A stretch of DNA of 64,000 bases from Patescibacteria group bacterium (lineage in GTDB: Bacteria > Patescibacteriota > Patescibacteriia > UBA10025 > JAHIVO01). This document shows positions 4,981 through 56,619 of this stretch, piece by piece. The DNA lies in the NCBI GenBank assembly GCA_041650915.1, contig JBAZKE010000001.1, forward strand, positions 547,097 through 611,096, given 5' to 3'. The first letter of the stretch is position 1, and each line of letters begins with the position of its first letter. The translations under genes were made by a program, and so were the position numbers. The notes under the pieces were generated by a model. That model was not told the origin of the DNA. It made no database searches and saw only the letters and a list, made by a program, of their open reading frames with translations.

Positions 4981-6177
4981 CTAACGCTTGAGCAAGTGTA
5001 TCATTTGGACCGCACTTTCGTGCCAGGAAAACTCTTTAGAACGTTTGCGCCCCCGTTCTATGAGCGCAGTACGATAGCCATCGTCCGTCAATACACGATT
5101 GATACCGTTGGCGATTGATTGCGGATCGTCCGGATCTACGAGCATCGCCGCATCCCCGGCGACTTCTTTCATTGCTCCCCGGTTCGATGTAATGACAGGG
5201 GTGCCGCACGACATTGATTCAATGATTGGGATACCAAAACCCTCATACCGTGAAGGGAAGATAAACATTTTCGCTCCACACATTAGGAACGGCAGGTCGA
5301 TTTCGTCCACCCAACCGGGTAGAATAACATCGTCGTCGAGCCGTTCCGATAGAATACTTTTTTTAATTGCATCAAACCCATAGCCCGGTTTTCCGGCCAA
5401 AACAAGTTTTACGCTGTCAGAGTTTTGCTGGCGTTTATACAAAGAAAAACCTTTTATGATAGTATCTACGTTTTTTTTGTATTCGATCCGACCGATATAT
5501 AAAATATAAGAGCTGAAAATAGAGTATTTACGTACAATGCAATTTATTCGTGTTTGATCCTCTCGACGATAGTACTGTTTTCCAGGGGCGGGATAAACTA
5601 CATGAATACGGTCGCCTGCGATCGTAAGTTTTTTCTGGATTTCCCTTTTTGAAAATTCAGAAACTGTAGTAATAGCTGACGCTTTTTTTTTGGCAAGGCG
5701 GGCAGACCAGCGATGGTAGTCAAGCTCGGTCGTGCTGTAGCTACCGCACGAAATAATTTTTACCAGTAGCTTGATGAGGGATTTGAGGATTTTATTGTTC
5801 GGTCCGATGGTCTTTGTGGAGTATAAGTGTGCGTATTCTTCAAACCCGACATCGTGCAGCGTGGTCACTGTCTTTTTTGGGCATATGACCGGGATCGTAT
5901 GCGCAGGCACAAAGAGTGCGTCAGGCTTCCTCACGAGCATCTCGAGAGCAAGCCGAAGCTGTGTCCATAGAATTTTCGGTGGCCACGTAAGTACCCTACT
6001 GGAAAAATTTGGGGGTAATTTTGAGAGCTCGCCCTTGAGCTCTTCCTTCGAATATAAAATAAACTGATCACGCGGATCAGCTACTTTTTTTATTTCCTCA
6101 ATAAGATAGAAAGCGTACCACTCCGTACCCGTTTTGCAGTCTACGTTGGCACGTGAAGCGTCAATCCCAATAATCAT
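4981..6177 (-). CDS. Glycosyltransferase, family 4 (GT-B, Glycos_transf_1).
   Basis: C-terminal EGFGIPIIESMSCGTPVITSNRGAMKEVAG is the GT4 signature region. Confidence 0.7.
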   Translation of the reverse strand: MIIGIDASRANVDCKTGTEWYAFYLIEEIKKVADPRDQFILYSKEELKGELSKLPPNFSSRVLTWPPKILWTQLRLALEMLVRKPDALFVPAHTIPVICPKKTVTTLHDVGFEEYAHLYSTKTIGPNNKILKSLIKLLVKIISCGSYSTTELDYHRWSARLAKKKASAITTVSEFSKREIQKKLTIAGDRIHVVYPAPGKQYYRREDQTRINCIVRKYSIFSSYILYIGRIEYKKNVDTIIKGFSLYKRQQNSDSVKLVLAGKPGYGFDAIKKSILSERLDDDVILPGWVDEIDLPFLMCGAKMFIFPSRYEGFGIPIIESMSCGTPVITSNRGAMKEVAGDAAMLVDPDDPQSIANGINRVLTDDGYRTALIERGRKRSKEFSWHESAVQMIHLLKR

Positions 6178-14052: not shown

Positions 14053-15192
14053 GCGAGTACCTTATTGAGTTTTTTCACTTCTCTTTCCCACACGTAGGTG
14101 TTTTGGGCATGTTCCTTGCCTTGGCGTCCGAGTTTATGGGCATACTCCTTATCAGAAAGGATTTTCAAAATTGCTTCCGACAGTTCATGCGGGTCCTCCG
14201 GATTAATAAGGAGACCGGTTTGACCATCCTTGATCGCATCTGACACGCCACCAGTTTTTCCTCCAATGACTGGCTTGCCGAATAAATTTGCTTCGAGGTA
14301 AACCATTCCAAACCCTTCGACATCGATGACTTCTCCGCTCGAGTTTTTTAAAGCGCGTGAGGGCATGACAAAAACGCTCGAGCATCGATAAAAATACGGA
14401 AGTTCTTCATCCGATACTCGGTCAAATATTTTTACATATTCGTTGAGATGATTCTTTTTTATGAGCTCTTCGAGTATAGTCCGGTATGGCCCGTCTCCGA
14501 CGATGACGTACAGGAGGTTTGGAATTTTTTTAATAATCGACGGAAGTATCTTGAGGACAATATCGTGGCCTTTACGTTGTACGAGGTTACCGACGGTCAA
14601 GATTATTTTCTTGCCGTAAAAATTATGTTTATGGACTATGTAATCTAAGTATTGCTGATCGACATACGTGTCAACGAGGCCTTCTGGGGAAGGAAATACC
14701 GTTATAGTACGCCGAGGGTCCGATCCGAGCGTAATCGCTCTTGCCTGGGTATGGCTGCTGTTTGTGATGACGGCACTTGCATTTGATAGAATTTTTTTTA
14801 TAAGATACATTTTTCTGAATGATCTCCTCATGATGACAAGATCTTGCCCGTAAACATACACAAGGTATGGGATTTTATATCTTTTTTTTAATATGAGTGC
14901 AACGGTACCGATTGGTAAAATTTGGCCGACGTGAATCATCTGGATGCCCTCTCGTTCGATAATTGCTTTCAATTTTCTAAACAAAAAAATCCAACGCGGC
15001 CATACAAAAACTGATTCGCTTAGAACGCGCCGCCTGTAAATTTTCCAATCTGCAAGAGGTTCAAATTTTGATGGTTCAGTCAATACAACGATTTTATCAG
15101 GCGGCAGTTGGCTGCATACGTTCCAAAGAAATTTGCTGACCCCTCCACGGAGTGGCGGAAAGTAAAGGGTCACGAGCAGTGATTTTTTCATA
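14049..15192 (-). CDS. Glycosyltransferase, family 4.
   Basis: EGFGMVYLEANLFGKPVIGGKTGGVSDAIKDGQTGLL. The preferred start MKKSLLVTLYFPP has an ATG that overlaps the TGA stop of the wzx gene as ATATGA. The ORF track extends it to 15290. Confidence 0.7.
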
Positions 15193-16678
15193 TAAATTTC
15201 TTTAGTAGTGCATTGTAGAGCATAATGAAATCCGACCGTGTGACTCCCTTGAAAGCATAAAGTGCCGCAAAATAAACAATAGCTCCGCATGGAATAGAGA
15301 TGAATATTGATGTGCTATCTTTTAGCAGGAGAAGCACGATAGCCATGATTGACCCAGCAAGAAGTGCTTTCAAGAAAGCTTTAATGATTTTTTTACCATT
15401 GTACGGATTAATTTTACCGACCCACCGAAGCCCAAGGAAGAAAAGGACAAGGCCGCTTATGAGTGCGGCAGTTGCAGCACCATTGAATGAAAAACCGCGA
15501 ACCGCAACAAAATAAATATTAAGCGTTACGTTAATAAAAACGGTAATGCCCATGTTAATTGTGTTGACAACTTGCTTGTTGCATGCATTTAAAAACGCTC
15601 CGACGGGAAAGTTTAAAAAAATTACGACAAGTCCGACGATGAGTATCCGTAGCGGAATAATGGATGTTACGTAAGCCTCACCGGATATTTTAATAATGAG
15701 TTGGTCGGCCAATATAAAAATTCCAATAGAAATCGGGACCGCAATGACGGACAGATAGTGCATCGAGCGTTCGAATGTTTTCGCAAGCTTTTCTTTGGAG
15801 GAAATAAAGAATGCGCTCATTGCAGGGAAAATACTGATTGCAAATGCAGATGGGATAAATTCAAGAGCGTAAGTCAACTTATGGGAAACTGCATACCAGC
15901 CGACCGCACCTTGGCCTTCGACTATAAGCAGCATAAACCTATCAGTATAAGTATATATTTTTACAAAAATTGCCGTAATTGCAAATGGGAGCGCGGTTTT
16001 TATAAATGTTTTTATTATTGACATGTCCCAGCCAAAAGCGACCCGAATTTTTAATTTTTTTCTCAGCATTACATAAGAAAAAATAAAATTAAAGATGCTC
16101 CCAATGACAACTGCTACAAATAGTGCCTGTAATCCCCAATCAAATTTTAAGGATGCAACACCGAATAGGATTGTTAAAACTTGAGTCCCGATCATGCCGA
16201 GAGCTTCAAATTTCATATTCTGATGGCCGCGGAAGACTGCAAAAAAAGTTAAAGTGAAGGTGTCAAGAGCGACGATGAGCGCATCGAGGTATAATATTGT
16301 TTTGATCAGCTGCTGATTTTCCTCAAAACTGGAGAAGTTAGTGAAGAGGCCCATCCCGAGAATGATGATAAATGCGAAAATTGCTTTAACTGAAAGTACA
16401 TTAGAAAGATAATCTTCTGTTTTTTCCGGTTTGCGGGCAATTTCTCTGACAAGCACGACACTCAGGCTAAAATCAATGAGTATAAGTAAAATTGGGATCA
16501 GTGATTTTGCCGGGTCATACAGTCCAAAATCAACTGGTCCAATGACTCGGGCGATGTAAATGAAGTACACAAAAGACATGACCTTCTGTAGTACATATGC
16601 TACGGTCAGGTAACTTGTGTTCTTTAAAATCCTCTCTTGAGAATGGTGGCTGTCATTTTGTTGAGAGGGAGAGCCCAT
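15188..16678 (-). CDS. Polysaccharide flippase of the MOP/Wzx family.
   Basis: About 14 TM helices, with a typical Wzx N-terminus. Start M11 avoids overlap with rpsI; the ORF track start is 16708. Confidence 0.6.
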   Translation of the reverse strand: MGSPSQQNDSHHSQERILKNTSYLTVAYVLQKVMSFVYFIYIARVIGPVDFGLYDPAKSLIPILLILIDFSLSVVLVREIARKPEKTEDYLSNVLSVKAIFAFIIILGMGLFTNFSSFEENQQLIKTILYLDALIVALDTFTLTFFAVFRGHQNMKFEALGMIGTQVLTILFGVASLKFDWGLQALFVAVVIGSIFNFIFSYVMLRKKLKIRVAFGWDMSIIKTFIKTALPFAITAIFVKIYTYTDRFMLLIVEGQGAVGWYAVSHKLTYALEFIPSAFAISIFPAMSAFFISSKEKLAKTFERSMHYLSVIAVPISIGIFILADQLIIKISGEAYVTSIIPLRILIVGLVVIFLNFPVGAFLNACNKQVVNTINMGITVFINVTLNIYFVAVRGFSFNGAATAALISGLVLFFLGLRWVGKINPYNGKKIIKAFLKALLAGSIMAIVLLLLKDSTSIFISIPCGAIVYFAALYAFKGVTRSDFIMLYNALLKKFI

Positions 16679-20956: not shown

Positions 20957-22783
20957 TTAAGAAAGAATAGCTTTTATCCGGCGAATTCCGCTTGAAGACG
21001 ATTTTTCGGATTGAATGTGAAAATTACCGAGTTCTGACGTATTCTTCACATGTGGACCTCCGCACAATTCTTTAGAAAAATCACCTATAGAATAAACAGT
21101 AACTTTCTCAGGGTATTTTTCCTTAAAGAAAGAAAGTGCCCCGGATTTTACTGCATCGTCATAAGGCACTTCTTCGGAAGTTACCATGTAATTTTTTTTG
21201 ATGATCTCATTAACGAGGCGTTCTATTTTATTTTTTTCGTCTTCAGTCAATTTCGAATGGTGCTCAAAGTCAAAACGAAGCCGTTCGGGATTGATATCCG
21301 ATCCTTGCTGGCGAACATGAGGGCCAAGTACCGTACGGAGAGCCTGATGCAGTAGATGTGTGGCTGTGTGGTACCGTGTCATCAACGTTCTATCACTATC
21401 GGATAATTCTTTACTGTTTAGACCATGGCCGCCAAATTTATTTTCCGCCCCTGCACGTGAAAGTTTTTGGTGCTTCATAATTTCTCGGTGAAATCCTTCA
21501 CTATCGAATGTAAACCCTTCCCGCTTCAGCCGTTCTTCAGAAATTCCATACGTAGAATATAGGATAAAAGCTTCTTCCGCAGTTAATTTTCGCGTTGATG
21601 GCCCAGTAGAAACATCATGCTTAGTTTGAGTCTTGAGATGAATGATTTTATCAGCAATTTCGTGCACATTGAGGTTGAGTATTTTTTGATATCCAGACAA
21701 TTCTTTATTCATTTTTTCCGCTAAAGAATTTCGCTCTCGTTTGATCATCGGGTACTGCTTCTCATAAATTGACGCAACAGTATCGACAATTAAGGTTAGA
21801 TTAAAACGGGGATGCAAGTACTGATCGAGTGCACGCCGAAAAACTCTTCGTAGTATATATCCCTGCTCTTTATTACTGAAATTAATTCCATCAGATAATA
21901 AAAAAACCGATGCTTTAAAGTGATCGGCAGCAATACGGCAGCGGATAGCATCCTCAATCAAATTTGTAGAACCAAAATTGGGATCGTCTAAAATTAATTT
22001 TATGAGCGGTGAAAAAAGATCAGTTTCAAAAATGCTTTTTTTCCCCTGAAGAATCAGCGCAAGCCGTTCTAGTCCCATGCCAGTATCAATATTTTTACCA
22101 GGCAGTTCTTTAATTTTACCTCTGGCATCCATATGGAATTCCATGAAAACTAAATTCCATAATTCCATAAATCTGCCACACTCGCAATTTGGAAGGCACT
22201 GTTTTCCTCGTAAACAAGGTTTTCCGGTAAAATCATAGTGGAGTTCTGAACACGGGCCACATGGGCCTGATTTACCGGGAGGGCCCCACCAATTGTCATC
22301 CTTGCCAAAACCAATAATACGCTCAGTGGGCAAATATTTTTGCCAAAATTTAAAGGCCTCAGTATCTTTTGCAATTTCACTGCTTCCGCTATAATATGTT
22401 GCCCATAACTGATGTGGATTAATTTTTATAATTTTAGTCAGAAAAGTCCAAGAAAGATAAATGGCTTCTTCTTTGAAGTAATTTCCGATAGAAAAATTCC
22501 CAAGCATTTCAAAAAAAGTATTGTGGTACGGATCTCCTACTTCTTCAATATCCGAAGTTCTAAAAGACCGTTGTATGGAAACAAGCTTGGTGTTGCCAAA
22601 TTGTTTTTGAGCATCCTTAATTCCCATCAGATATGGCTTAAATTGCTGCATCCCTGCTGTTGTTAAAAGCACTGATGGATCATCTTGAGGCCACAGTGAA
22701 GAAGAATCAACTAAGGTATGCGAAAACTTCTTATTTTTTATAAAAAAACTTATAAATTTCTGCCGTATTTTATTGGAATTCAT
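20957..22783 (-). CDS. alaS: Alanyl-tRNA synthetase, short form (608 aa) lacking the C-Ala domain.
   Basis: The N-terminus has the WPQDDPSVLLTTAGMQQFKP class II core. The editing domain is present (HTATHLL...CGGPHV). The protein ends about 25 aa after it. Confidence 0.8.
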   Translation of the reverse strand: MNSNKIRQKFISFFIKNKKFSHTLVDSSSLWPQDDPSVLLTTAGMQQFKPYLMGIKDAQKQFGNTKLVSIQRSFRTSDIEEVGDPYHNTFFEMLGNFSIGNYFKEEAIYLSWTFLTKIIKINPHQLWATYYSGSSEIAKDTEAFKFWQKYLPTERIIGFGKDDNWWGPPGKSGPCGPCSELHYDFTGKPCLRGKQCLPNCECGRFMELWNLVFMEFHMDARGKIKELPGKNIDTGMGLERLALILQGKKSIFETDLFSPLIKLILDDPNFGSTNLIEDAIRCRIAADHFKASVFLLSDGINFSNKEQGYILRRVFRRALDQYLHPRFNLTLIVDTVASIYEKQYPMIKRERNSLAEKMNKELSGYQKILNLNVHEIADKIIHLKTQTKHDVSTGPSTRKLTAEEAFILYSTYGISEERLKREGFTFDSEGFHREIMKHQKLSRAGAENKFGGHGLNSKELSDSDRTLMTRYHTATHLLHQALRTVLGPHVRQQGSDINPERLRFDFEHHSKLTEDEKNKIERLVNEIIKKNYMVTSEEVPYDDAVKSGALSFFKEKYPEKVTVYSIGDFSKELCGGPHVKNTSELGNFHIQSEKSSSSGIRRIKAILS

Positions 22784-23988: not shown

Positions 23989-25293
23989 TTATAAATTATC
24001 TATAACTTCTTTAAGAAATTTCATTCTTGGAGAAACAAATTCATCCTGGGTAATTCTAGAAGCCGCATACATTGCATTTTGTGTTTTATGTTTTTGCCGG
24101 TGCTGGTATTTTCTTGGATAGTTATTTTCGATGCTTCCATTAGGAAGTATAAATACGCTGTATTTTTTTAGCATTTCAATTAAGCTCACTTCCGGTTCTG
24201 TAAATCTCATCTGAATTTTTTTCTGAATAATATTAAGGCCGGTATCATAAAGAGCATCGCGATCAAGTAAAACACAGTATGGCAAATCAAAAAGATCAAG
24301 AACATCCGTATATACGTCAATATTACTCTTACCGTAAACTTGGATTACCTTAATATCTTTTGTACCAGTATAAAATTTATTAATTAATTCCCGCATTAAA
24401 ATGTGATCAGACGGTCCTTCCACGAGCAGGACTTTATCCGCAAAAAACATTTCAGTATTATCGGCATTAAGCTCCTGTCTCAGTCTCTCGTAATTTATCC
24501 TTTTTCCGGTGAGTCTTGGAGAGTGAACTTTAGTAGTGTCACCTTCTTTTGTTACGCGAAAAATTCGGTGTAAATTTTCTGGACGAACGAAATTTGTCGA
24601 GTGGGTCGTTAAAAAAATTTGATTATCCAGGTTTCTTTCCTCCAAAATACTTATAAGTTTCTTAATAAGTGCTGGATGGAGGTGCACTTCAGGTTCTTCG
24701 AGTAATAAAACGGAGTATACTGGGTGGAAGAGGTACAAGAGTATTTTAAAAACCTGCCGAAATCCCGCACCGAGGCGCTCGTAGGGGCGCGTGGCGCCTT
24801 CATGCTCAATCGTGCTTGAAGTGAACAGTTTTCTATCGATCATAATTTGGGGAATGTACTGCTGCAATGTACGATGAAACAGCTCAAATTGATCGGGATA
24901 TTGTACTACTAAACTCTCAAAATCATGCTGCACTTTTTGAATTGAAAGATGATCAGTGGCGCATATTCTTACCATACGGCTAGATAGAATTTCCTTGCCT
25001 TTGTCAGGTGAAATTTCTTTGTCATCAAGCAAAAATTTTGTAAGATCCGCGAGTTGTACCACGTCGAGTATGCTTTTTTTTCGATCGAGCGTCAGACTAA
25101 AACTAGCATGAATATCACACTCTGGATCATGAAGCCGGATGCTGTTTCCGTTGTAAAGCCTGTAGATTGAATCTAAAATGTTTGTTTTGCCTGCATTATT
25201 TGCCCCAATAAAAATATGCAGAATACCCAGGTCATGCAGAACCAGTTTTTTTATGCTCTTATACCTGTTGATGGTGATTTTTTCAAGACGCAT
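23989..25293 (-). CDS. Compact OLD-family nuclease: ABC-type ATPase fused to a TOPRIM domain.
   Basis: Walker A is FIGANNAGKTNILDS. Walker B is VLLLEEPEVHLHP, with an H-loop at TTHS. The C-terminal TOPRIM has KVLLVEGPSDHIL (catalytic Glu) and a DxD in VLLDRDALYD. Confidence 0.7.
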   Translation of the reverse strand: MRLEKITINRYKSIKKLVLHDLGILHIFIGANNAGKTNILDSIYRLYNGNSIRLHDPECDIHASFSLTLDRKKSILDVVQLADLTKFLLDDKEISPDKGKEILSSRMVRICATDHLSIQKVQHDFESLVVQYPDQFELFHRTLQQYIPQIMIDRKLFTSSTIEHEGATRPYERLGAGFRQVFKILLYLFHPVYSVLLLEEPEVHLHPALIKKLISILEERNLDNQIFLTTHSTNFVRPENLHRIFRVTKEGDTTKVHSPRLTGKRINYERLRQELNADNTEMFFADKVLLVEGPSDHILMRELINKFYTGTKDIKVIQVYGKSNIDVYTDVLDLFDLPYCVLLDRDALYDTGLNIIQKKIQMRFTEPEVSLIEMLKKYSVFILPNGSIENNYPRKYQHRQKHKTQNAMYAASRITQDEFVSPRMKFLKEVIDNL

Positions 25294-25304
25294 TTCTAAA
25301 AAAT

Positions 25305-25757
25305 TTACGCATACAGTTTATAAAAAAAATCTTCCAATGCGCTACGTTGTGCTTGGTTTGGACTGATTTTAGTTCTCTTTTTTTTAATTCTTTTTATCGC
25401 ATCTTGAGGCGTAAGACCGTAGTGAAGAATATAGTATGCTGCAACTAAAGTTGGCGCGCGTCAGCGTCCTTCGTTACAATGAACATAGCAGCGCATTTTT
25501 TGTGCAATGAGGTCTTCAATAAAATGTGATCCGATCATGAGCTGCACAGGAGACGGAGCAGTAAAATCAACTGTCGGAAGCCACAAAAATGATTCAACGC
25601 CTGATGGTGAATCTTCTTTTTCCTGCTGAAGGTCAATATCAGCTTTAATCCCCTTTTTTAAAAGCAACTCAAAATGTTTTTTACAGCAAATGCTGGTGCC
25701 GATATACAAGTACGGTTCGATGCGCGTATAGTTCAAATGGCGTTCGTTGGTTGTCAT
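25305..25757 (-). pseudogene. Dual-specificity (Cys-based, CX5R) protein phosphatase gene interrupted by one in-frame TGA in the P-loop.
   Basis: The ORF 25461-25757 ends ...YVHCNEGR then TGA. Reading through in the same frame continues RAPTLVAAYYILHYGLTPQDAIKRIKKKRTKISPNQAQRSALEDFFYKLYA then TAA at 25305. The readthrough reconstitutes a canonical 150-aa DSP (HCxxGx[G]R + AYLM-like helix). The TGA occupies the conserved Gly position, so it is one substitution from GGA. Confidence 0.6.
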
Positions 25758-25850
25758 GAATATCGTATCTTAATGGAATAAATTGACTATAGCATGTATA
25801 TGCATCATTAAAAAGGCTGTGGAGACAAGCTTGCGTCCCCCTCCAGATAA

Positions 25851-27644
25851 CTAATCTAGCTGGATTTTTTGTCCTGGTTGGATTGGTTTACCTGGTTGTG
25901 CATGTGTTTCTGGAATGGATTTTCGGGCTTTATGCTGAAAAGGTTTATTCGTCCGAAGCATCGTCGGTGAAGACTTCATTGTATGATCAGTTATCTTACC
26001 CCTGCTCTTAAACGGTTTGGGTTGCATTGAAAACGCTTCGCTTAGTGAAATTTCTTTTTCCGGGCCTTGGACACTAACAGTTTCAAGATCACGAATAGGT
26101 ATATATTCCTTTTTTTTCTTTTCCGGTGGAAGTTTAGAAATTTTACTTATTTCAGGAGCAGAAAATGAGCGAATTGGAGGCGGATTTTGGCCATTCTTTT
26201 TTTGTGAAGCGTGGATTTTTTCAACAAATTGGTTATCCGCTTCTGCCATTGCCTTATGCATTTCGTGAACTCCGCTCCAGCGCATGATTTTATCTTCAAC
26301 AAGCTCTCGTGATTTACTATACCGTTCGCGTGAAACACTTAAAATTTTATTCTTGTTATTAGTTTTGCCTGTAAGCGGAGGCAGTGTTTTTGCGGAAAAA
26401 GGTTCTGAAGCTACCCCGTCTATCATCAGCTTCATGTAAACATTATACTTCGTTAAATTAAGAAGATCCTCCTCCATAAAAATCGGATAAAATTCTTTCG
26501 CAAGAAATTCAGCATCGGCGGCTCCGACGCGAAAACAGACAATAGTACCGATATTACCGAATACCGCGGCACGGACAGTCTCATCAAGCTGCTCGACGTA
26601 TTGATGGGCGATTATTAAATTAAGCCTGTATTTTCGCGCTTCCGATAAAATGCTCGCGAAGCTTTCAGTGGCAAAATTTTGGAATTCATCTACATACAGG
26701 TAGAAATCCTCTCGCTCATTTTCTGGTATATCGACTCTGCTCATCGCTGCGAGTTGGAGCCTGGTAATCATCATGGCACCGAGCAGAGATGAACTGTCTT
26801 CTCCGATTCTACCTTTCGAAAAATTAAGCAAAAGAATCTTTTTGTTATCCATTATTTCACGCAAATCAATGGTGCTTTTTGGCTGACCGACGATATTACG
26901 GATAACAGAACTCGATAAGAATTGCCCAACCTTATTCTGGATTGGGGCAATTGCCTCATTTCGAAATCGGTCATTATATCCGGCATATTCATCAACCCAA
27001 AAACTTTTTACAATCGGATCCGTGACTTTATCGATGACCTTCTTTCTATACTTTTTATCGACGAGAATGCGGGAAATACCGAGCATTGTCGAGCCTGGAT
27101 ACTCGAGCAGTGCAAGTATGCAATTATTGAGGATATATTCCATTCGGGCGCTCCATACCCCTTCCCATATTTTTGTAAAGACGCCCATGAGCCCAGATGC
27201 AACAAGGTGGCGCTGGTCGGGATCGACATTTTCCAGAACATTAAATCCGATGGGATACTCCAGGTCTGCCGGATTGAAATAGACCACATCATTAACCCGG
27301 TATGATGGTATGTAGTCGATAACCTTTTCAACGAGATCGCCATGCGGATCAACGAGCGCCAAACCCCGGCCTGCGCGAATATCCGAAATGACCATGTTTT
27401 CAATCACGGTTGTTTTTCCCATGCCTGTCTTGCCAATCAGATACATATGCCGACGCCTATCATCAACTCTAATGCCGAATTTTCGTGCTAAATTTCGAAA
27501 ATTCGTTTCGGCGAAGGGTGTTATTTCTCTTTCGAGGTCGGCTGTCATGGTTGTATTAAGCTGTCGGTAAATTTGGCGGCGGTACTCCTTTTTGTTCTGC
27601 AGGTGGCATGGCAATCCGCCCAAGCCTCTCCGGTGCTTGCTCAA
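25851..27644 (-). CDS. TrwB/TraD/VirD4-family (type IV coupling protein-like) P-loop ATPase: soluble, with a long basic disordered C-terminal tail.
   Basis: HMYLIGKTGMGKTTVIENMVISDIRAGRGLALVDPHGDL parallels TrwB Walker A plus the VIVDPNGD box. Walker B is FYLYVDEFQNF. There is no N-terminal TM. The start could be M33 at 27548. Confidence 0.55.
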   Translation of the reverse strand: MSKHRRGLGGLPCHLQNKKEYRRQIYRQLNTTMTADLEREITPFAETNFRNLARKFGIRVDDRRRHMYLIGKTGMGKTTVIENMVISDIRAGRGLALVDPHGDLVEKVIDYIPSYRVNDVVYFNPADLEYPIGFNVLENVDPDQRHLVASGLMGVFTKIWEGVWSARMEYILNNCILALLEYPGSTMLGISRILVDKKYRKKVIDKVTDPIVKSFWVDEYAGYNDRFRNEAIAPIQNKVGQFLSSSVIRNIVGQPKSTIDLREIMDNKKILLLNFSKGRIGEDSSSLLGAMMITRLQLAAMSRVDIPENEREDFYLYVDEFQNFATESFASILSEARKYRLNLIIAHQYVEQLDETVRAAVFGNIGTIVCFRVGAADAEFLAKEFYPIFMEEDLLNLTKYNVYMKLMIDGVASEPFSAKTLPPLTGKTNNKNKILSVSRERYSKSRELVEDKIMRWSGVHEMHKAMAEADNQFVEKIHASQKKNGQNPPPIRSFSAPEISKISKLPPEKKKKEYIPIRDLETVSVQGPEKEISLSEAFSMQPKPFKSRGKITDHTMKSSPTMLRTNKPFQHKARKSIPETHAQPGKPIQPGQKIQLD

Positions 27645-28965
27645 GTGGCAGGTCTATCGGTGCTTGTGCTTTCTTCGAATCAACTTTTTGCACGGACGGT
27701 ACTTTAACGTCGATAATCGGAAAGTGCCATATCGTCGCGAGTTCTTCGATATTGAGAACATAATTTTTCCGTCCCCTCCATAAACTCCGATAGCGGTAAG
27801 ACCAGAGTAGCCGCCGTTTTCTAGCTAATAACCTTGATTTTGCAAATAAAAATTTTGCCCTTGAAAATGTTTTCATATCTGGTCTGAATCCATTTGTATT
27901 CTGCGCGGCAAACTGATGAACAGTTCCGATAACGCCATCGAGTCCTTTTGAAAGCTGGGCGTTCTTTTTTTTTGCTCCGTAAATCATCCGCAGTTTTGAT
28001 TCATATCCAATTTTTGAAATTTTCATTCCTATCGCCTCGACAATATCCCGCTCTGCCGGTGATAAGTGCTGCATTTGGCTTGGCCAGTCCTGTATATTAC
28101 GCTGGCGTTGTGGCCCTTCCATTTCAGTAGGAGGTATTATTGAAGCGGTGAATGATTCTGACAATCCTTTCCCAATTTCTCTCGGAAAATAAAGCCAATC
28201 GGCGACCGATTTTGCGCCATCTTTTTTACCAATAAGTTTATTGATAAGCGATATACCTTTTTGCTTCCAATCTTCTGTGACCGGAGAAATGACTAGCTGA
28301 TACCAAAGATGCTCACCCGGACCCATTCTGCTCAGTATCTCCATGAGAGAAGCCATCGGATCTAAAAACTTTTGTGATAGGCTGTGTTCAAAATTCGGGT
28401 ACGTCTTAATCGGATAAAGATAATTATGGGCAAGCTTGAATTCCGTTCCCCAGACGTCGTATTCGGGATGGGGCAACTCAAGCGGTTTCGGAAGCATATC
28501 GATGTAATCTTCGACTTCCGTGATTTCTGCTTCAGGGTATTGGGCATAAATCGCGGCTTCAACTAGATCTCTGAATTTTACCGGGGTTCGTATTAGAAAT
28601 TGAATATATCCTTCAATGCTGACGATTTCCAGGCTGACCCCGAGCTGAGTTTTCCCTTCGACAAATCTTTCATACAAATCGTACGTTCGAATAAATCCAA
28701 AAATATGCGAAAATATATGTTCGACAGCTTTCGGGCTCTGCTCGTTGCCCCGGGGGATATCAATAGCAAGCAGGACAAAAGGTATTTTTGACTGATACTT
28801 ATTCTGTATATAAAGTACCCAACCTTCCCAACCGCCCCATAGGGAAACGATAATAACTATAATCCAGCCCCCGTGCAAAAATAAAAAAAACATAGCACCA
28901 AAGGGGCTGCCAACATCGGGAAATAAAGTAAGTGCTTGATCTGGTCCTACGACAAATGGATTCAT
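27556..28965 (-). CDS. Hypothetical membrane-anchored protein (N-terminal TM helices plus a roughly 400-aa soluble domain). It is the partner of the coupling-protein-like ATPase.
   Basis: The N-terminus FGAMFFLFLHGGWIIVIIVSLWGGWEGWVLY is hydrophobic. There are no recognisable catalytic motifs, and the C-terminus is basic. It lies 15 bp downstream of the regulator gene and abuts the ATPase gene. Confidence 0.4.
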   Translation of the reverse strand: MNPFVVGPDQALTLFPDVGSPFGAMFFLFLHGGWIIVIIVSLWGGWEGWVLYIQNKYQSKIPFVLLAIDIPRGNEQSPKAVEHIFSHIFGFIRTYDLYERFVEGKTQLGVSLEIVSIEGYIQFLIRTPVKFRDLVEAAIYAQYPEAEITEVEDYIDMLPKPLELPHPEYDVWGTEFKLAHNYLYPIKTYPNFEHSLSQKFLDPMASLMEILSRMGPGEHLWYQLVISPVTEDWKQKGISLINKLIGKKDGAKSVADWLYFPREIGKGLSESFTASIIPPTEMEGPQRQRNIQDWPSQMQHLSPAERDIVEAIGMKISKIGYESKLRMIYGAKKKNAQLSKGLDGVIGTVHQFAAQNTNGFRPDMKTFSRAKFLFAKSRLLARKRRLLWSYRYRSLWRGRKNYVLNIEELATIWHFPIIDVKVPSVQKVDSKKAQAPIDLPLEQAPERLGRIAMPPAEQKGVPPPNLPTA

Positions 28966-28980
28966 GTTGATCGTAGTTTG

Positions 28981-30102
28981 CTAGGATGGGACAGCAAGAC
29001 TGTACGTACCATCCTCATTTTTTTTGAATTTTGTTTTATCCGTAAGAGCAAGATGAATCGTATTTTTTTTAACGATTCTTTGTTCGAGCACTTTCTCAAC
29101 AAGCTGCGATCGAGTTAACGATTCGCTAGATCTATTGAGAATGTCAATCAGTACATTGGAAACAACGCCAGGTTTATAACCCCACTCTTTCAGTGCATAG
29201 ATTCCTCGTCCGACGAGAACATATCTGCTGTTGAGAATAAGTTCATTGTGCACCGTGGGCGGATAGGCTTTACGGGTATCAAATTTGACTTCGTTTATTT
29301 TTTGAGCAATCTCTGTAAAGTGCATTGGTTTCCCATGCCGCTTTAAAACCAGATAAATTTTATCATTCATTCTTTTTGGAACAATGCTGCCCCATTCCTT
29401 CAACCCAAATTCATCAAATGGATTTCTTGATATACTATTGCTCATATTCAAGTATGACGTAACAGCTTCCTCGGTAAGCAACTGCGGATTATGTTTAAAT
29501 AAATCTGTTTCCTTAAATTGCGAAAGAATCGAACTTATTGTTGCCGGCTTGCCATTTTTTGCGATAGTATCGAAGAGCGTCTTAATAGAATCTCTTATTA
29601 AATGTATCGGGGCATGAGAAAGCTGCCAGGATTGCTTAAAAACTTCATCGGGTCTTATAGTTTTAAATTTCTTTTTTAAAAGTTCTGAAATAACAAATAA
29701 AATATTTTGCCGGTTCATTTGGCTGTCGCCTACGACCTGTAAAAGTTCAGCGAGCAGATCGTTTTCTTCCATGGCCGCACCGTGTTGTTCGAGAACCGAA
29801 TAAACAGTATTTTCGATCGAAGCGATAAGTTCATTGAAGTTTTTAAGCTGGCTAATTTTTTGTATAGCGGTTTTTTCAATTTGACGAATTCTTTCCCTGG
29901 TAACTTTATAGGTCGCACCGATTTCTTCGAGAGTCTCTTTTTCTTTCCCGAGTAATCCGAATCTGCGACGAAGAACATCTTCTTCGCGTGTAGTAAGGGC
30001 CTTTAAGAGCTGAGAGACGGTATCGCTTGGATTGAACTGCTCGATTTGATTTGTTTTTTTACTGGAGATAACCTTATCCAGTATTGAATTTCCCTCTTCC
30101 AT
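28981..30102 (-). CDS. Putative transcription factor: N-terminal sigma-70 region 4 (4.1-4.2 HTH) and a C-terminal HARE-HTH-like winged helix.
   Basis: Residues about 35-90, DTVSQLLKALTTREEDVLRRRFGLLGKEKETLEEIGATYKVTRERIRQIEKTAIQKI, closely resemble RpoD region 4. The C-terminal KIYLVLKRHGKPMHFTEIAQKI...NSRYVLVGRGIYALKEWG resembles the HARE-HTH of the RNAP delta subunit and restriction enzymes. Confidence 0.5.
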   Translation of the reverse strand: MEEGNSILDKVISSKKTNQIEQFNPSDTVSQLLKALTTREEDVLRRRFGLLGKEKETLEEIGATYKVTRERIRQIEKTAIQKISQLKNFNELIASIENTVYSVLEQHGAAMEENDLLAELLQVVGDSQMNRQNILFVISELLKKKFKTIRPDEVFKQSWQLSHAPIHLIRDSIKTLFDTIAKNGKPATISSILSQFKETDLFKHNPQLLTEEAVTSYLNMSNSISRNPFDEFGLKEWGSIVPKRMNDKIYLVLKRHGKPMHFTEIAQKINEVKFDTRKAYPPTVHNELILNSRYVLVGRGIYALKEWGYKPGVVSNVLIDILNRSSESLTRSQLVEKVLEQRIVKKNTIHLALTDKTKFKKNEDGTYSLAVPS

Positions 30103-53078: not shown

Positions 53079-54458
53079 TCAAATTACAGCAAGCAATCTG
53101 CCGCTGACGTCTGTAATCGTGCCTGCGCCCATCGTGATCACGACGTCTCCTCTTTTCTTCCGCGCCGTAAAGTGCTTGATCGCATCGTTAAAATTTTTCG
53201 CATAGTGCACTGGCTGGTTCCGTTTGCCTATTTCTGCTGCAAGATCCTTTGCAGTCCGTTTGGCTTTCAATTCCCTTCCTGCAACTTTATAGGTATCCGT
53301 AATAATAAGCTGGTCGCAATCGGTAAATGCGCCTCTGAAGGATGTAAAAAGCGATTCAGTACGGTGTGCGCTATGGGGCTGAAAAATGCACCAAATCCTC
53401 CTGTTCGCAAAAAAATCTTTTGCCGTCCGGAGGGTTTCTTTAATTGCAGTCGGATGATGAGCGTAATCATCCACGACGGTAATCCCGTTTTTGGTTCCTT
53501 TAATTTCAAAACGCCTGGCGGCTCCGCCATAGGATCGCAAACCGGCTGCAATGTGTTCAGTGCGTATTCCGAACATATAGGCAAGTGACGCTGCAGCGAG
53601 GGCATTTAAAACATTATGCCTGCCGTGCTGCAGTATGGAAAGATCAAATTTATCAATACCAGACACTGAGAACAACGTAAATTTATCTTTCCGTAAAATA
53701 TTCGTTACGTGCAAATCGCCAAACCCAATGCCGTATGTGATAATCTTGCACGGAGCGCCTTCGACAGCGCGGATCGAGTTACTGTCCATGATATTTACCG
53801 CGATGCAGCCTCCGCGTGGCATCCGCTTGATGAGCGCCTTGAATGCGCGTACGATAGCTTCTTCATCTTTATAGACATCGAGGTGGTCTGCTTCAATGTT
53901 ATTTACGATCAAGCCGTATGGCCGGTAGCTGTGAAAAGCCTTTTTATATTCATCGCCTTCGATGATAAAGTGCCGTCCGAGGCCGACGCGAGCATTGCCT
54001 TGAAACGCATCAATGTGTGCACCGACTATGACAGTAGGATCCAGCCCGGCAGCGATTAAAATATGAGCCAGCATCGAAGTAGTCGTGCTTTTGCCATGAG
54101 TACCCGTTACGACAAGCTGAATATAGGATTTCATCAGCTGCCCCATAAACTCAGGGTAGGTCAACGATGGGATCCCGAGCTTTTGTCCCTTTTTTAGTTC
54201 GGGATTATCCGATGCTAGAGCGTTTGAAAATACGATTAAGTCCGCATCTTTGGGCACGTTCGAAGCGCTATGTTTTCCAATAATACAAGTAATCCCCTCT
54301 TTATTGAGCTGCCTGGTCAGTCCTGTTTGCGTGATGTCTGAACCGGTAACCCGCATTCCAAATGCATGAGAAATACGTGCAGCCGCAGAAATTCCTATCC
54401 CGCCAATTCCAATAAAATGAATGGCATGGCATTTTTCAAGTTGTACTATTTTTTGCAT
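53079..54458 (-). CDS. murC: UDP-N-acetylmuramate--L-alanine ligase.
   Basis: HFIGIGGIGISAAARI and VTGTHGKSTTTSM, a Mur ligase P-loop. Confidence 0.85.
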   Translation of the reverse strand: MQKIVQLEKCHAIHFIGIGGIGISAAARISHAFGMRVTGSDITQTGLTRQLNKEGITCIIGKHSASNVPKDADLIVFSNALASDNPELKKGQKLGIPSLTYPEFMGQLMKSYIQLVVTGTHGKSTTTSMLAHILIAAGLDPTVIVGAHIDAFQGNARVGLGRHFIIEGDEYKKAFHSYRPYGLIVNNIEADHLDVYKDEEAIVRAFKALIKRMPRGGCIAVNIMDSNSIRAVEGAPCKIITYGIGFGDLHVTNILRKDKFTLFSVSGIDKFDLSILQHGRHNVLNALAAASLAYMFGIRTEHIAAGLRSYGGAARRFEIKGTKNGITVVDDYAHHPTAIKETLRTAKDFFANRRIWCIFQPHSAHRTESLFTSFRGAFTDCDQLIITDTYKVAGRELKAKRTAKDLAAEIGKRNQPVHYAKNFNDAIKHFTARKKRGDVVITMGAGTITDVSGRLLAVI

Positions 54459-55513
54459 AGACCGATTATCGCCTGAGCAATCTTTTGTGCTGCATCCGTT
54501 TTTCCGAGCGTTCGTATCGTTTTAGAAAGTGTTTGCAACTCAACCTTATTTGCCTGCAAGTTCCTGATAGTTTCTACAAAATGTTTCGCCGTAGCAGTAT
54601 CCTGTTCTATGACTAAAACCGCGCTTCTATCTAAAAAGTACTGTGCGTTGTCCTCTTGGTGGGAGTTCGGCAGAGGAATGAGTATGGAAGGCTTGCCAAG
54701 ATGCATTAACTCGGTACAGGTAGAAATACCCGCTCTCGCGACAACGATGGAAGCAAGCGCATATGCATCCGGCATGCGTTCGGCCATAAATTCCCTTTGG
54801 ATATAACGGCTATTATCCTGGAGTTGTATGGATTTGCCTGCTCCGGTGATATGAATAATTTGAAAATTTTTCGTTAATTCACCAATTGATTGGCATACTA
54901 ATTGGTTTATAAAACGCGCACCCGTACCGCCACCCATTATTAAAATTGTCGGAATTTTTTCATCAAATTTATATTGCGAAATTGCACGCATCGGATTGCC
55001 ATTAAGAATATCCGGGCGGAACGGATTGCCGGTAAGGCTTGTTTTGCGTGCATTAAAGAATCGAGTCGAAATGTCAAATGAAACGGTTATGTGCCCGGCA
55101 ATCCATGCCGTAAGCCTATTGGAAAGTGAAGGACGAATATCTTGCTGGTGGATTAACACAGGGATATTGAGCAGTTTTGCGGCATAGATAACAGGTACTC
55201 CAACGTAGCTCCCCGCACTCACTACGGCAGAAGGCTTATAGCTTACCAAAATTTTTAAAGATTGGAAAAAACCGATTGCAATGAGCACGATGTCCAAAAT
55301 ATTACGAAAATCAAAGTAACGCCGAAGCTTACCGCAAAAAATCGATGTGAACCGAATTCCATGCTGTTCAACGATGCTCTTTTCCGGATTTCCGGAGATC
55401 GTGCCGATAAAAAGCAAGTCTGAATCAGGAAGATTTTTTTTCAGTTCATGGTAAACGGAAATTAACGGGATAACTGAGCCGGCCGTACCTCCGCCAGCGA
55501 ATACAAATTTCAT
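54446..55513 (-). CDS. murG: Lipid II synthase MurG.
   Basis: FAGGGTAGSVIPLISV and a C-terminal GT28 domain. Confidence 0.85.
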   Translation of the reverse strand: MKFVFAGGGTAGSVIPLISVYHELKKNLPDSDLLFIGTISGNPEKSIVEQHGIRFTSIFCGKLRRYFDFRNILDIVLIAIGFFQSLKILVSYKPSAVVSAGSYVGVPVIYAAKLLNIPVLIHQQDIRPSLSNRLTAWIAGHITVSFDISTRFFNARKTSLTGNPFRPDILNGNPMRAISQYKFDEKIPTILIMGGGTGARFINQLVCQSIGELTKNFQIIHITGAGKSIQLQDNSRYIQREFMAERMPDAYALASIVVARAGISTCTELMHLGKPSILIPLPNSHQEDNAQYFLDRSAVLVIEQDTATAKHFVETIRNLQANKVELQTLSKTIRTLGKTDAAQKIAQAIIGLCKK

Positions 55514-56619
55514 GAGTTTTTTATTTGCTTAGAAATATTGATAAGAATGCCGATTGCAATTAAAGAAGTGGCGAGCGCAGAACTGCCATAACTAATGAAT
55601 GGAAGTGGTATACCCGTAAGTGGCAGGAGTGTAACCATGGCAGCAATATTGATAAAGGCTTGGAGCACGATCCACGATACGATGCCAACCGAAACGAGTT
55701 TTCCAAACGTGTCGGGAGCTTTTTTTGCTATCTGCAGTCCGCGGTATAAAAAAGAAATAAATAGTATAATCAGCGCAATCGAAAAAAAGAGTCCCAACTC
55801 TTCAGCAATGACTGCAAAAATTGAGTCTCCGGTAACTTCCGGCAGGTACAAATATTTTTGCCGTGAATGTCCGAGGCCGAGGCCGAAAAGGCCGCCGCTG
55901 CCGATAGCGAGTAATGCCTGATTAATATGGTAGCCAACGCCTTGCGGATCCAGTGCTGGATTAAGGAATACCGTCAAGCGTGCCGCGCGGTATGGAGCAA
56001 TTTTAATGAGTACTAAAAATAAACCTGTTGCCCCGAGCATTATCCATGCCAAGTGCTTGATTGGGGCGCCAGCAATAAAAAAGATGGCTACTCCAGTGAT
56101 TGCGATAACAGTCATTGTTCCCATATCGGGCTGAAGCATGATAAGGAATATTATCGATCCGAGTATGATCAAGAAGGGAACCAGCCCATACGCAGCCTCT
56201 TTTATCCCCTCTTTATTCTTAGCAAATAGTACGGACAAATACAAAATAAAGGTCAGCTTCAGTACTTCAGTGGGCTGCAGGAGTGTAAATCCCAAATTGA
56301 TCCAGCGCCGTGCCCCACCGTACTCGAATCCAATTCCTGGAATAAATACAGCGAGTAGCAATAAAATATTTATAACGAGGATCGGCAGTGCGAGTTTACT
56401 CCATAAGTGGTAATCGATCTTTGATGCGATCAAGAACCCAATAATTCCAAGTAAAACGCCAAATAGAAGCTGATGTTTTAAAAAATAGTTACTATCACCG
56501 TACTTATCAAAGGCAAGCACAGAACTTGCTGAAGACAGCATAATTAATCCATACACAACGATAATGCCTATGATAATAAGAATTGCATAATCCGGTTTAT
56601 GTAGTCTGGTTTGTGCCAT
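55510..56619 (-). CDS. ftsW: SEDS-family peptidoglycan polymerase (FtsW/RodA).
   Basis: Ten TM helices. PDMGTMTVIAI and GGARRWINLGF motifs. It ends on a TGA stop. Confidence 0.8.
   Translation of the reverse strand: MAQTRLHKPDYAILIIIGIIVVYGLIMLSSASSVLAFDKYGDSNYFLKHQLLFGVLLGIIGFLIASKIDYHLWSKLALPILVINILLLLAVFIPGIGFEYGGARRWINLGFTLLQPTEVLKLTFILYLSVLFAKNKEGIKEAAYGLVPFLIILGSIIFLIMLQPDMGTMTVIAITGVAIFFIAGAPIKHLAWIMLGATGLFLVLIKIAPYRAARLTVFLNPALDPQGVGYHINQALLAIGSGGLFGLGLGHSRQKYLYLPEVTGDSIFAVIAEELGLFFSIALIILFISFLYRGLQIAKKAPDTFGKLVSVGIVSWIVLQAFINIAAMVTLLPLTGIPLPFISYGSSALATSLIAIGILINISKQIKNS

Follow-up and report, generated by a model that had tools for sequence, protein, structure and literature searches.

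A dual-specificity-family phosphatase gene in this Patescibacteria genome is interrupted at codon 99 by one in-frame TGA, where sister assemblies of the same population carry GGA. It is proposed that the TGA is a real, very young or still segregating GGA-to-TGA null allele, a reading to which we assign about an even chance; an error of consensus, assembly or sequencing in the MAG as deposited, which would leave the organism with GGA and an intact, functional gene, is a serious contender that falls somewhat short of an even chance. With either origin the finding is an ordinary one, and no recoding is involved.

The window, that is, the whole stretch of 64,000 nucleotides that was analysed, holds the gene on its minus strand (Table 1). 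Its ATG lies at 25757-25755, and the open reading frame runs for 98 codons to ...CYVHCNEGR before it meets the TGA, which is the sole break in 150 codons (context HCNEGR-(stop)-RAPT). The variant base is window position 25463, A on the plus strand and T on the coding strand. Past the TGA the frame stays open through a further 51 sense codons (RAPTLVAAYYILHYGL...EDFFYKLYA; in full, RAPTLVAAYYILHYGLTPQDAIKRIKKKRTKISPNQAQRSALEDFFYKLYA) to a TAA at 25307-25305; since these 51 open, conserved codons complete a domain, the continuation goes beyond chance and is not a random ORF. A preliminary description had placed a phosphatase gene at 25305-25757, split by one in-frame TGA at the P-loop glycine, and was exact in coordinates, strand and motif. 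In NCBI the 98-aa fragment is listed as hypothetical protein WC505_02735 (MFA5134684.1) on a contig of 679,916 bp that is also held in JGI/IMG. At the level of local sequence, G-R-G-R is encoded in the intact allele by two hexamers in tandem, GGACGC GGACGC, where the window reads GGACGC TGACGC (25455-25472, minus strand); the second hexamer opens with the variant base, which lies within a local GC-rich stretch.

Table 1. Coordinates of the phosphatase gene, its parts and the other genes referred to; positions are those of the window except in the last row, where they refer to the named loci.
Feature	Position	Strand	Description	Basis
Phosphatase gene of dual-specificity fold, whole	25305..25757	-	150 codons plus TAA, broken at codon 99	Translation, Pfam DSPc, intact allele P0044
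TGA at codon 99, last P-loop residue	25461..25463	-	Holds the sole mismatch in 20,453 aligned bases	
Standard-code ORF, 98-aa fragment	25461..25757	-	Retains Asp64 and Cys94; without Arg100 and three C-terminal helices	
Untranslated remainder, codons 100-150 plus TAA	25305..25460	-	Begins with P-loop Arg100; helices 100-113, 117-127 and 135-149	AlphaFold model
P-loop H93-C94-N-E-G97-R-(TGA)-R100	25458..25481	-	CX5R signature	Invariant residues, 43 sequences
General-acid loop W59-L-P-T-V-D64-F	25563..25583	-	PTPMT1 loop LRLSTVDMT aligns	Asp64 in 42/43 members
FtsW	55510-56619		TGA-terminated	
MurC	53079-54458		TGA-terminated	
Wzx-like flippase	15188-16579		TGA-terminated	
OLD-family ATPase/TOPRIM nuclease	23989..25293	-	434 aa	Pfam AAA_21, AAA_15, OLD-like_TOPRIM; PADLOC Old 4.5e-36
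TrwB/TraG-like coupling-type ATPase, upstream neighbour	25851..27548	-	565 aa in sister assembly; longest ORF to 27644	
Neighbour loci cited for the wider family	L066:6417-7793; L048:1233-2657; L032:4514-5953; L074:3566-5956; L075:6517-6840	- (L032)		

With glycine supplied at codon 99, the read-through product matches the Pfam DSPc profile (PF00782) across the stop, over residues 18-143 and profile positions 2-129 of 133, scoring 61.9 bits where the cut-off is 33.5 (E 6.9e-17), which bears out the claim that reading through yields a 150-aa CX5R phosphatase; the protein also matches Pfam PTP-NADK. A protein search returned 42 homologues, the named ones from Patescibacteria and all of them single proteins of 143-188 aa, and the only truncated protein among the 43 database matches is this genome's own 98-aa fragment. 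His93, Cys94, Gly97, Gly99 and Arg100 are invariant in the alignment of the 43-member family, and Asp64 is conserved in all members save one. The gene has the complete CX5R signature, HCNEGR(G)R, and the encoded 98-aa product lacks Arg100, which lies past the TGA. Scanning one genome per species revealed related genes in 170 species, which belong to the Patescibacteria and the DPANN archaea. The equivalent of codon 99 is GGN at every one of the 81 loci with a recognisable P-loop (GGA 29, GGC 25, GGT 17, GGG 10, TGA 0), a count biased against TGA insofar as one of the two scan patterns demanded Gly at this site, as the other, SFLWLP..D, did not. The comparison with orthologous loci that had been advised at the outset thus gave a glycine codon throughout and no two-gene orthologues.

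The AlphaFold model of the intact allele (pLDDT 91.2, pTM 0.88) places a strand (89-93) before the P-loop (94-99) and starts a helix at Arg100. Among the best structural matches in Foldseek are PTPMT1 (TM 0.82, 30% identity) and DUSP23/VHZ (TM 0.85), followed by DUSP5, 8, 10 and 16 and the archaeal Tk-PTP; a profile search agrees with the structure, matching PTPMT1 at 4.8e-19. PTPMT1, a mitochondrial phosphatidylglycerophosphate phosphatase (PDB 3rgo, 3rgq), is the best match in sequence and fold combined and is likewise a minimal domain some 150 aa long, with a CX5R P-loop and a general-acid Asp loop that aligns. However, it has Ser (HCKAGRSRS) where the Patescibacteria family has the invariant Gly99 (HCNEGRGRAP), and no lipid-synthesis genes adjoin the Patescibacteria phosphatase. 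DUSP23/VHZ (2img, 4erc) and Tk-PTP (5z59, 5z5a, 5z5b) resemble it in fold (TM 0.76-0.85), in size and in an HCxxGxGR-type P-loop, but their identity is just 22-24%, and they are known enzymes acting on phosphoproteins, whereas the Patescibacteria protein is described from sequence and model. The gene is taken to be an ordinary, vertically inherited Cys-based phosphatase of dual-specificity fold with predicted activity. Its mechanism, by homology with the family, would be the standard one of the fold, in which the Cys94 thiolate acts as the nucleophile attacking the phosphate, the P-loop amides and Arg100 hold the phosphate, and Asp64 protonates the leaving group as the general acid.

Across the wider family, the immediate neighbours of the phosphatase in 77 loci from Patescibacteria and DPANN archaea are repeatedly redox proteins, including a DsbD_TM+DUF3105 fusion (16 loci), a pyridine-nucleotide-disulphide oxidoreductase (13 loci) and an AhpC/TSA-redoxin+DUF3179 fusion (13 loci); a G6PD-6PGD fusion (seven loci) and an ArsR-type regulator (five loci) are further neighbours. 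Together with the PTP-NADK match, this gene context suggests that the family may be linked to thiol/NADPH redox or metalloid handling rather than to protein dephosphorylation. A literature search for DSP-PTPases connected with NAD found nothing.

The 90%-identity cluster of the 98-aa fragment contains a second member, P0044, a 150-aa protein from ENA and Logan assemblies that has Gly at position 99 and is otherwise identical to the read-through translation of the window. Its contig (ENA ERZ27247363, k141_417452, 540,316 bp) was taken with 10-kb flanks around the phosphatase and aligned with window positions 15305-35757: 20,452 of the 20,453 bases are identical, and the alignment is free of gaps. 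The one base that differs is window position 25463, where this sister locus (L002) has G on the coding strand and codon 99 is therefore GGA, the ancestral codon that had been supposed in the preliminary description. The intact protein occurs in the ENA and Logan assemblies, and the 98-aa fragment only in the NCBI/JGI copy of the 679,916-bp contig. Beyond the 20,453 bp, identity across the window was checked by exact look-up of eight proteins rather than by DNA; these eight, spread over 4981-55513, are residue-identical in NCBI/JGI and ENA, and seven of them also in Logan. As the sister locus agrees at all but one base and all eight sampled proteins are identical, the GGA and TGA versions are assigned to the same population, and GGA (ENA, Logan) versus TGA (NCBI, JGI) is the sole difference found. 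A 31-mer spanning the site, its variant base replaced by N, gave 0 matches in genome and metagenome contig collections, so the species is absent from those collections. As a separate observation, the glycosyltransferase at 4981-6177 (minus strand) is 295 aa in NCBI (MFA5134662.1) and 398 aa, from an upstream ATG, in JGI, ENA and Logan, which is a start-site annotation discrepancy.

For the null allele, we propose that one G-to-T change in the copy captured by the deposited MAG turned the GGA of Gly99 into TGA. As the organism reads TGA as a stop, translation would end after Arg98, and the 98-aa product, without the P-loop arginine and the last three helices, should be inactive. The T would then be present in real cells and not just in the consensus, and because an intact allele exists in an otherwise identical population, the TGA allele would be a very young or still segregating loss-of-function variant. 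The TGA allele shows no secondary decay, its downstream 51 codons being undecayed. Deep short-read assemblies seldom contain consensus bases that no read supports. The 680-kb contig has no indels relative to the MEGAHIT assembly, which argues for a deep and accurate consensus; an unsupported base would be unusual in such a consensus, and this favours a real T allele.

Several of the same observations are also what an error in the deposited MAG would produce. The intact 150-aa protein is found in two other assemblies, ENA and Logan, both with G, although they may share reads with the MAG; over 20,453 bp nothing but the TGA differs, the eight other sampled proteins are identical, and the downstream 51 codons are free of decay. 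The change falls on a residue invariant in 43/43 sequences of a gene under purifying selection, and a change at an invariant residue of the catalytic loop is more readily expected from a process that selection does not steer, as an error would be, than from standing variation. The base change itself, G-to-T, is the one classically produced as an artefact when guanine is oxidised to 8-oxoguanine during library preparation. Against an error, the assembly is otherwise clean, with neither indels nor a further mismatch in 20 kb relative to an independent assembly, and the window contains no other broken gene. Nonsense changes make up about 5.6% of random substitutions in the phosphatase gene. The TGA resembles an ordinary nonsense allele or a consensus SNP in a MAG in being a single substitution, without secondary lesions, private to one assembly and accompanied by an intact allele, and no feature distinguishes it from them. 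Of the three origins first put forward, recent GGA-to-TGA pseudogenisation and error accordingly stand, and programmed readthrough falls, the stop being absent from the sister assembly and from 81/81 loci.

The null allele could have wider consequences if it were a real segregating knock-out and if phosphatase and adjacent OLD nuclease made up a two-gene unit, a phosphatase-partnered OLD system in which switching off the phosphatase would alter OLD activity; we regard this as unlikely. The neighbour does belong to the OLD family, with an ABC-type ATPase at its N-terminus and a TOPRIM domain at its C-terminus. It starts on the same strand, 11 nt past the phosphatase TAA (in the closest relative, L001, the two genes overlap by 4 nt), and the two genes adjoin on the same strand in all nine closest relatives (L001, L003-L010), with gaps of 0-300 nt. 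The pairing asserted in the preliminary description therefore holds within this clade of nine but not across the phosphatase family, since OLD is not a neighbour of the phosphatase in more distant members. The adjacency is no proof of a functional link, because the whole block from SecF to AlaRS keeps its order. A promoter and terminator scan performed no better than on shuffled sequence and placed no terminator between phosphatase and OLD, and the OLD reviews consulted describe no phosphatase partner.

The same gene order bears on the suggestion that the locus is an island. The order SecF, sigma-r4/HARE-HTH, DUF8128, TrwB/TraG-like ATPase, phosphatase, OLD, MnmA and AlaRS is kept in the nine closest loci (L001, L003-L010), in all of which the TrwB-like ATPase lies upstream of the phosphatase. 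Amino-acid identities in these loci are similar for core genes and supposed "island" genes, as in L004 (SecF 63%, TrwB-like 69%, phosphatase 64%, OLD 53%, MnmA 61%, AlaRS 62%), and no marked GC shift was found at the locus. A mobile or defence island was rejected on these three grounds, and the comparison with the nine relatives points to a conserved chromosomal gene order shared with housekeeping genes. Two features of the block may be recorded for themselves. The stretch 25851-30102 (minus strand) encodes a sigma-70-region-4/HARE-HTH protein (373 aa), a DUF8128 protein (469 aa) and the TrwB/TraG-like ATPase (about 565 aa), and is kept upstream of the phosphatase in the clade amid housekeeping genes, with no other conjugation genes nearby. 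The AlaRS (20957-22783, minus strand) is 608 aa long, compared with the usual bacterial length of about 870 aa; this is not a truncation artefact, because the same length is called in the sister assembly.

Functional readthrough, whether programmed or regulatory, in which a leaky UGA-C would let a near-cognate tRNA yield some full-length phosphatase, is in our judgement very improbable. UGA-C, the tetranucleotide found at codon 99, is the weakest (leaky) terminator context in E. coli, and the downstream frame is open and conserved. The context alone is weak evidence, and since the frame is that of the intact allele, its openness has a trivial explanation. Conservation of the stop is lacking, the codon being GGA in the sister assembly and GGN at the 81 related loci, and near-cognate decoding would mostly place a bulky Trp, Cys or Arg at the invariant glycine. 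The SECIS-like structure that the preliminary description proposed to seek downstream did not emerge, nor did a stimulatory one: the 81 nt around and after the TGA fold at -11.5 kcal/mol, more weakly than shuffled sequences do (mean -15.3, z = +1.41), and an Rfam scan of 24800-26300 gave just one snoRNA match, at chance level (E 0.93). A literature search on readthrough in Patescibacteria found nothing. Programmed readthrough was rejected on the missing conservation of the stop and the missing downstream structure.

The readings in which the TGA encodes an amino acid or separates two genes are scarcely credible. UGA is known to be read as Gly (code 25) in Gracilibacteria and Absconditabacteria of the Candidate Phyla Radiation (PMC4032931), and the present case resembles code 25 in having UGA exactly at a conserved, here invariant, Gly position in a genome of that radiation. 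It is unlike code 25 in that there is one such UGA in 19,452 codons, that TGA is a working terminator and that the gene has GGA in the same population. Stop usage in the 55 ORFs of the window is TAA 33, TAG 14 and TGA 8, the phosphatase included. The seven other genes that end with TGA encode FtsW, MurC, a Wzx-like flippase, an M50 protease, two glycosyltransferases and an O-antigen ligase; in five of them (FtsW, MurC, flippase, M50 protease and one glycosyltransferase) the Pfam match runs to the end of the profile, and two of the TGA stops overlap the start of the next gene as ATGA. The earlier statement that TGA is a genuine stop for ftsW, murC and wzx is thereby upheld, as is the conclusion drawn from it that code 25 provides no explanation: the 54 other ORFs contain 0 in-frame TGA in 19,452 sense codons, compared with 1,282 GGN. 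No tRNA genes were found in the window. Code 25 was rejected on these terminators, the lack of in-frame TGA and the GGA of the sister allele. A gene acquired from a code-25 donor among the Gracilibacteria or Absconditabacteria was likewise rejected, given vertical inheritance, conserved gene order and a divergence similar to that of MnmA and AlaRS. Selenocysteine, already judged doubtful in the preliminary description, is contradicted by the lack of a SECIS-like hairpin after the TGA and by the homologues, none of which has Cys at codon 99, Gly being found in 43/43 members and GGN in 81/81 loci. Two separate genes are excluded by the single-protein homologues and by the downstream piece (25305..25460), which is not a gene of its own because its sole in-frame start-like codon is a TTG at codon 141. 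Taken together, code 25, selenocysteine, programmed readthrough and two genes are rejected because TGA is a terminator here, there is neither a hairpin nor a downstream start, and the sister allele has GGA.

The main value of the analysis is one of clean-up: what seems to be UGA recoding of a catalytic glycine in a bacterium of the Candidate Phyla Radiation comes down to one base change private to one assembly, and the phosphatase TGA should not be used to infer anything about genetic code or islands. The appropriate annotation is a dual-specificity-family phosphatase, disrupted or simply intact, in place of a hypothetical protein of 98 aa. Should the allele be real, a loss-of-function variant of this phosphatase would co-exist with the intact gene in an otherwise clonal population.
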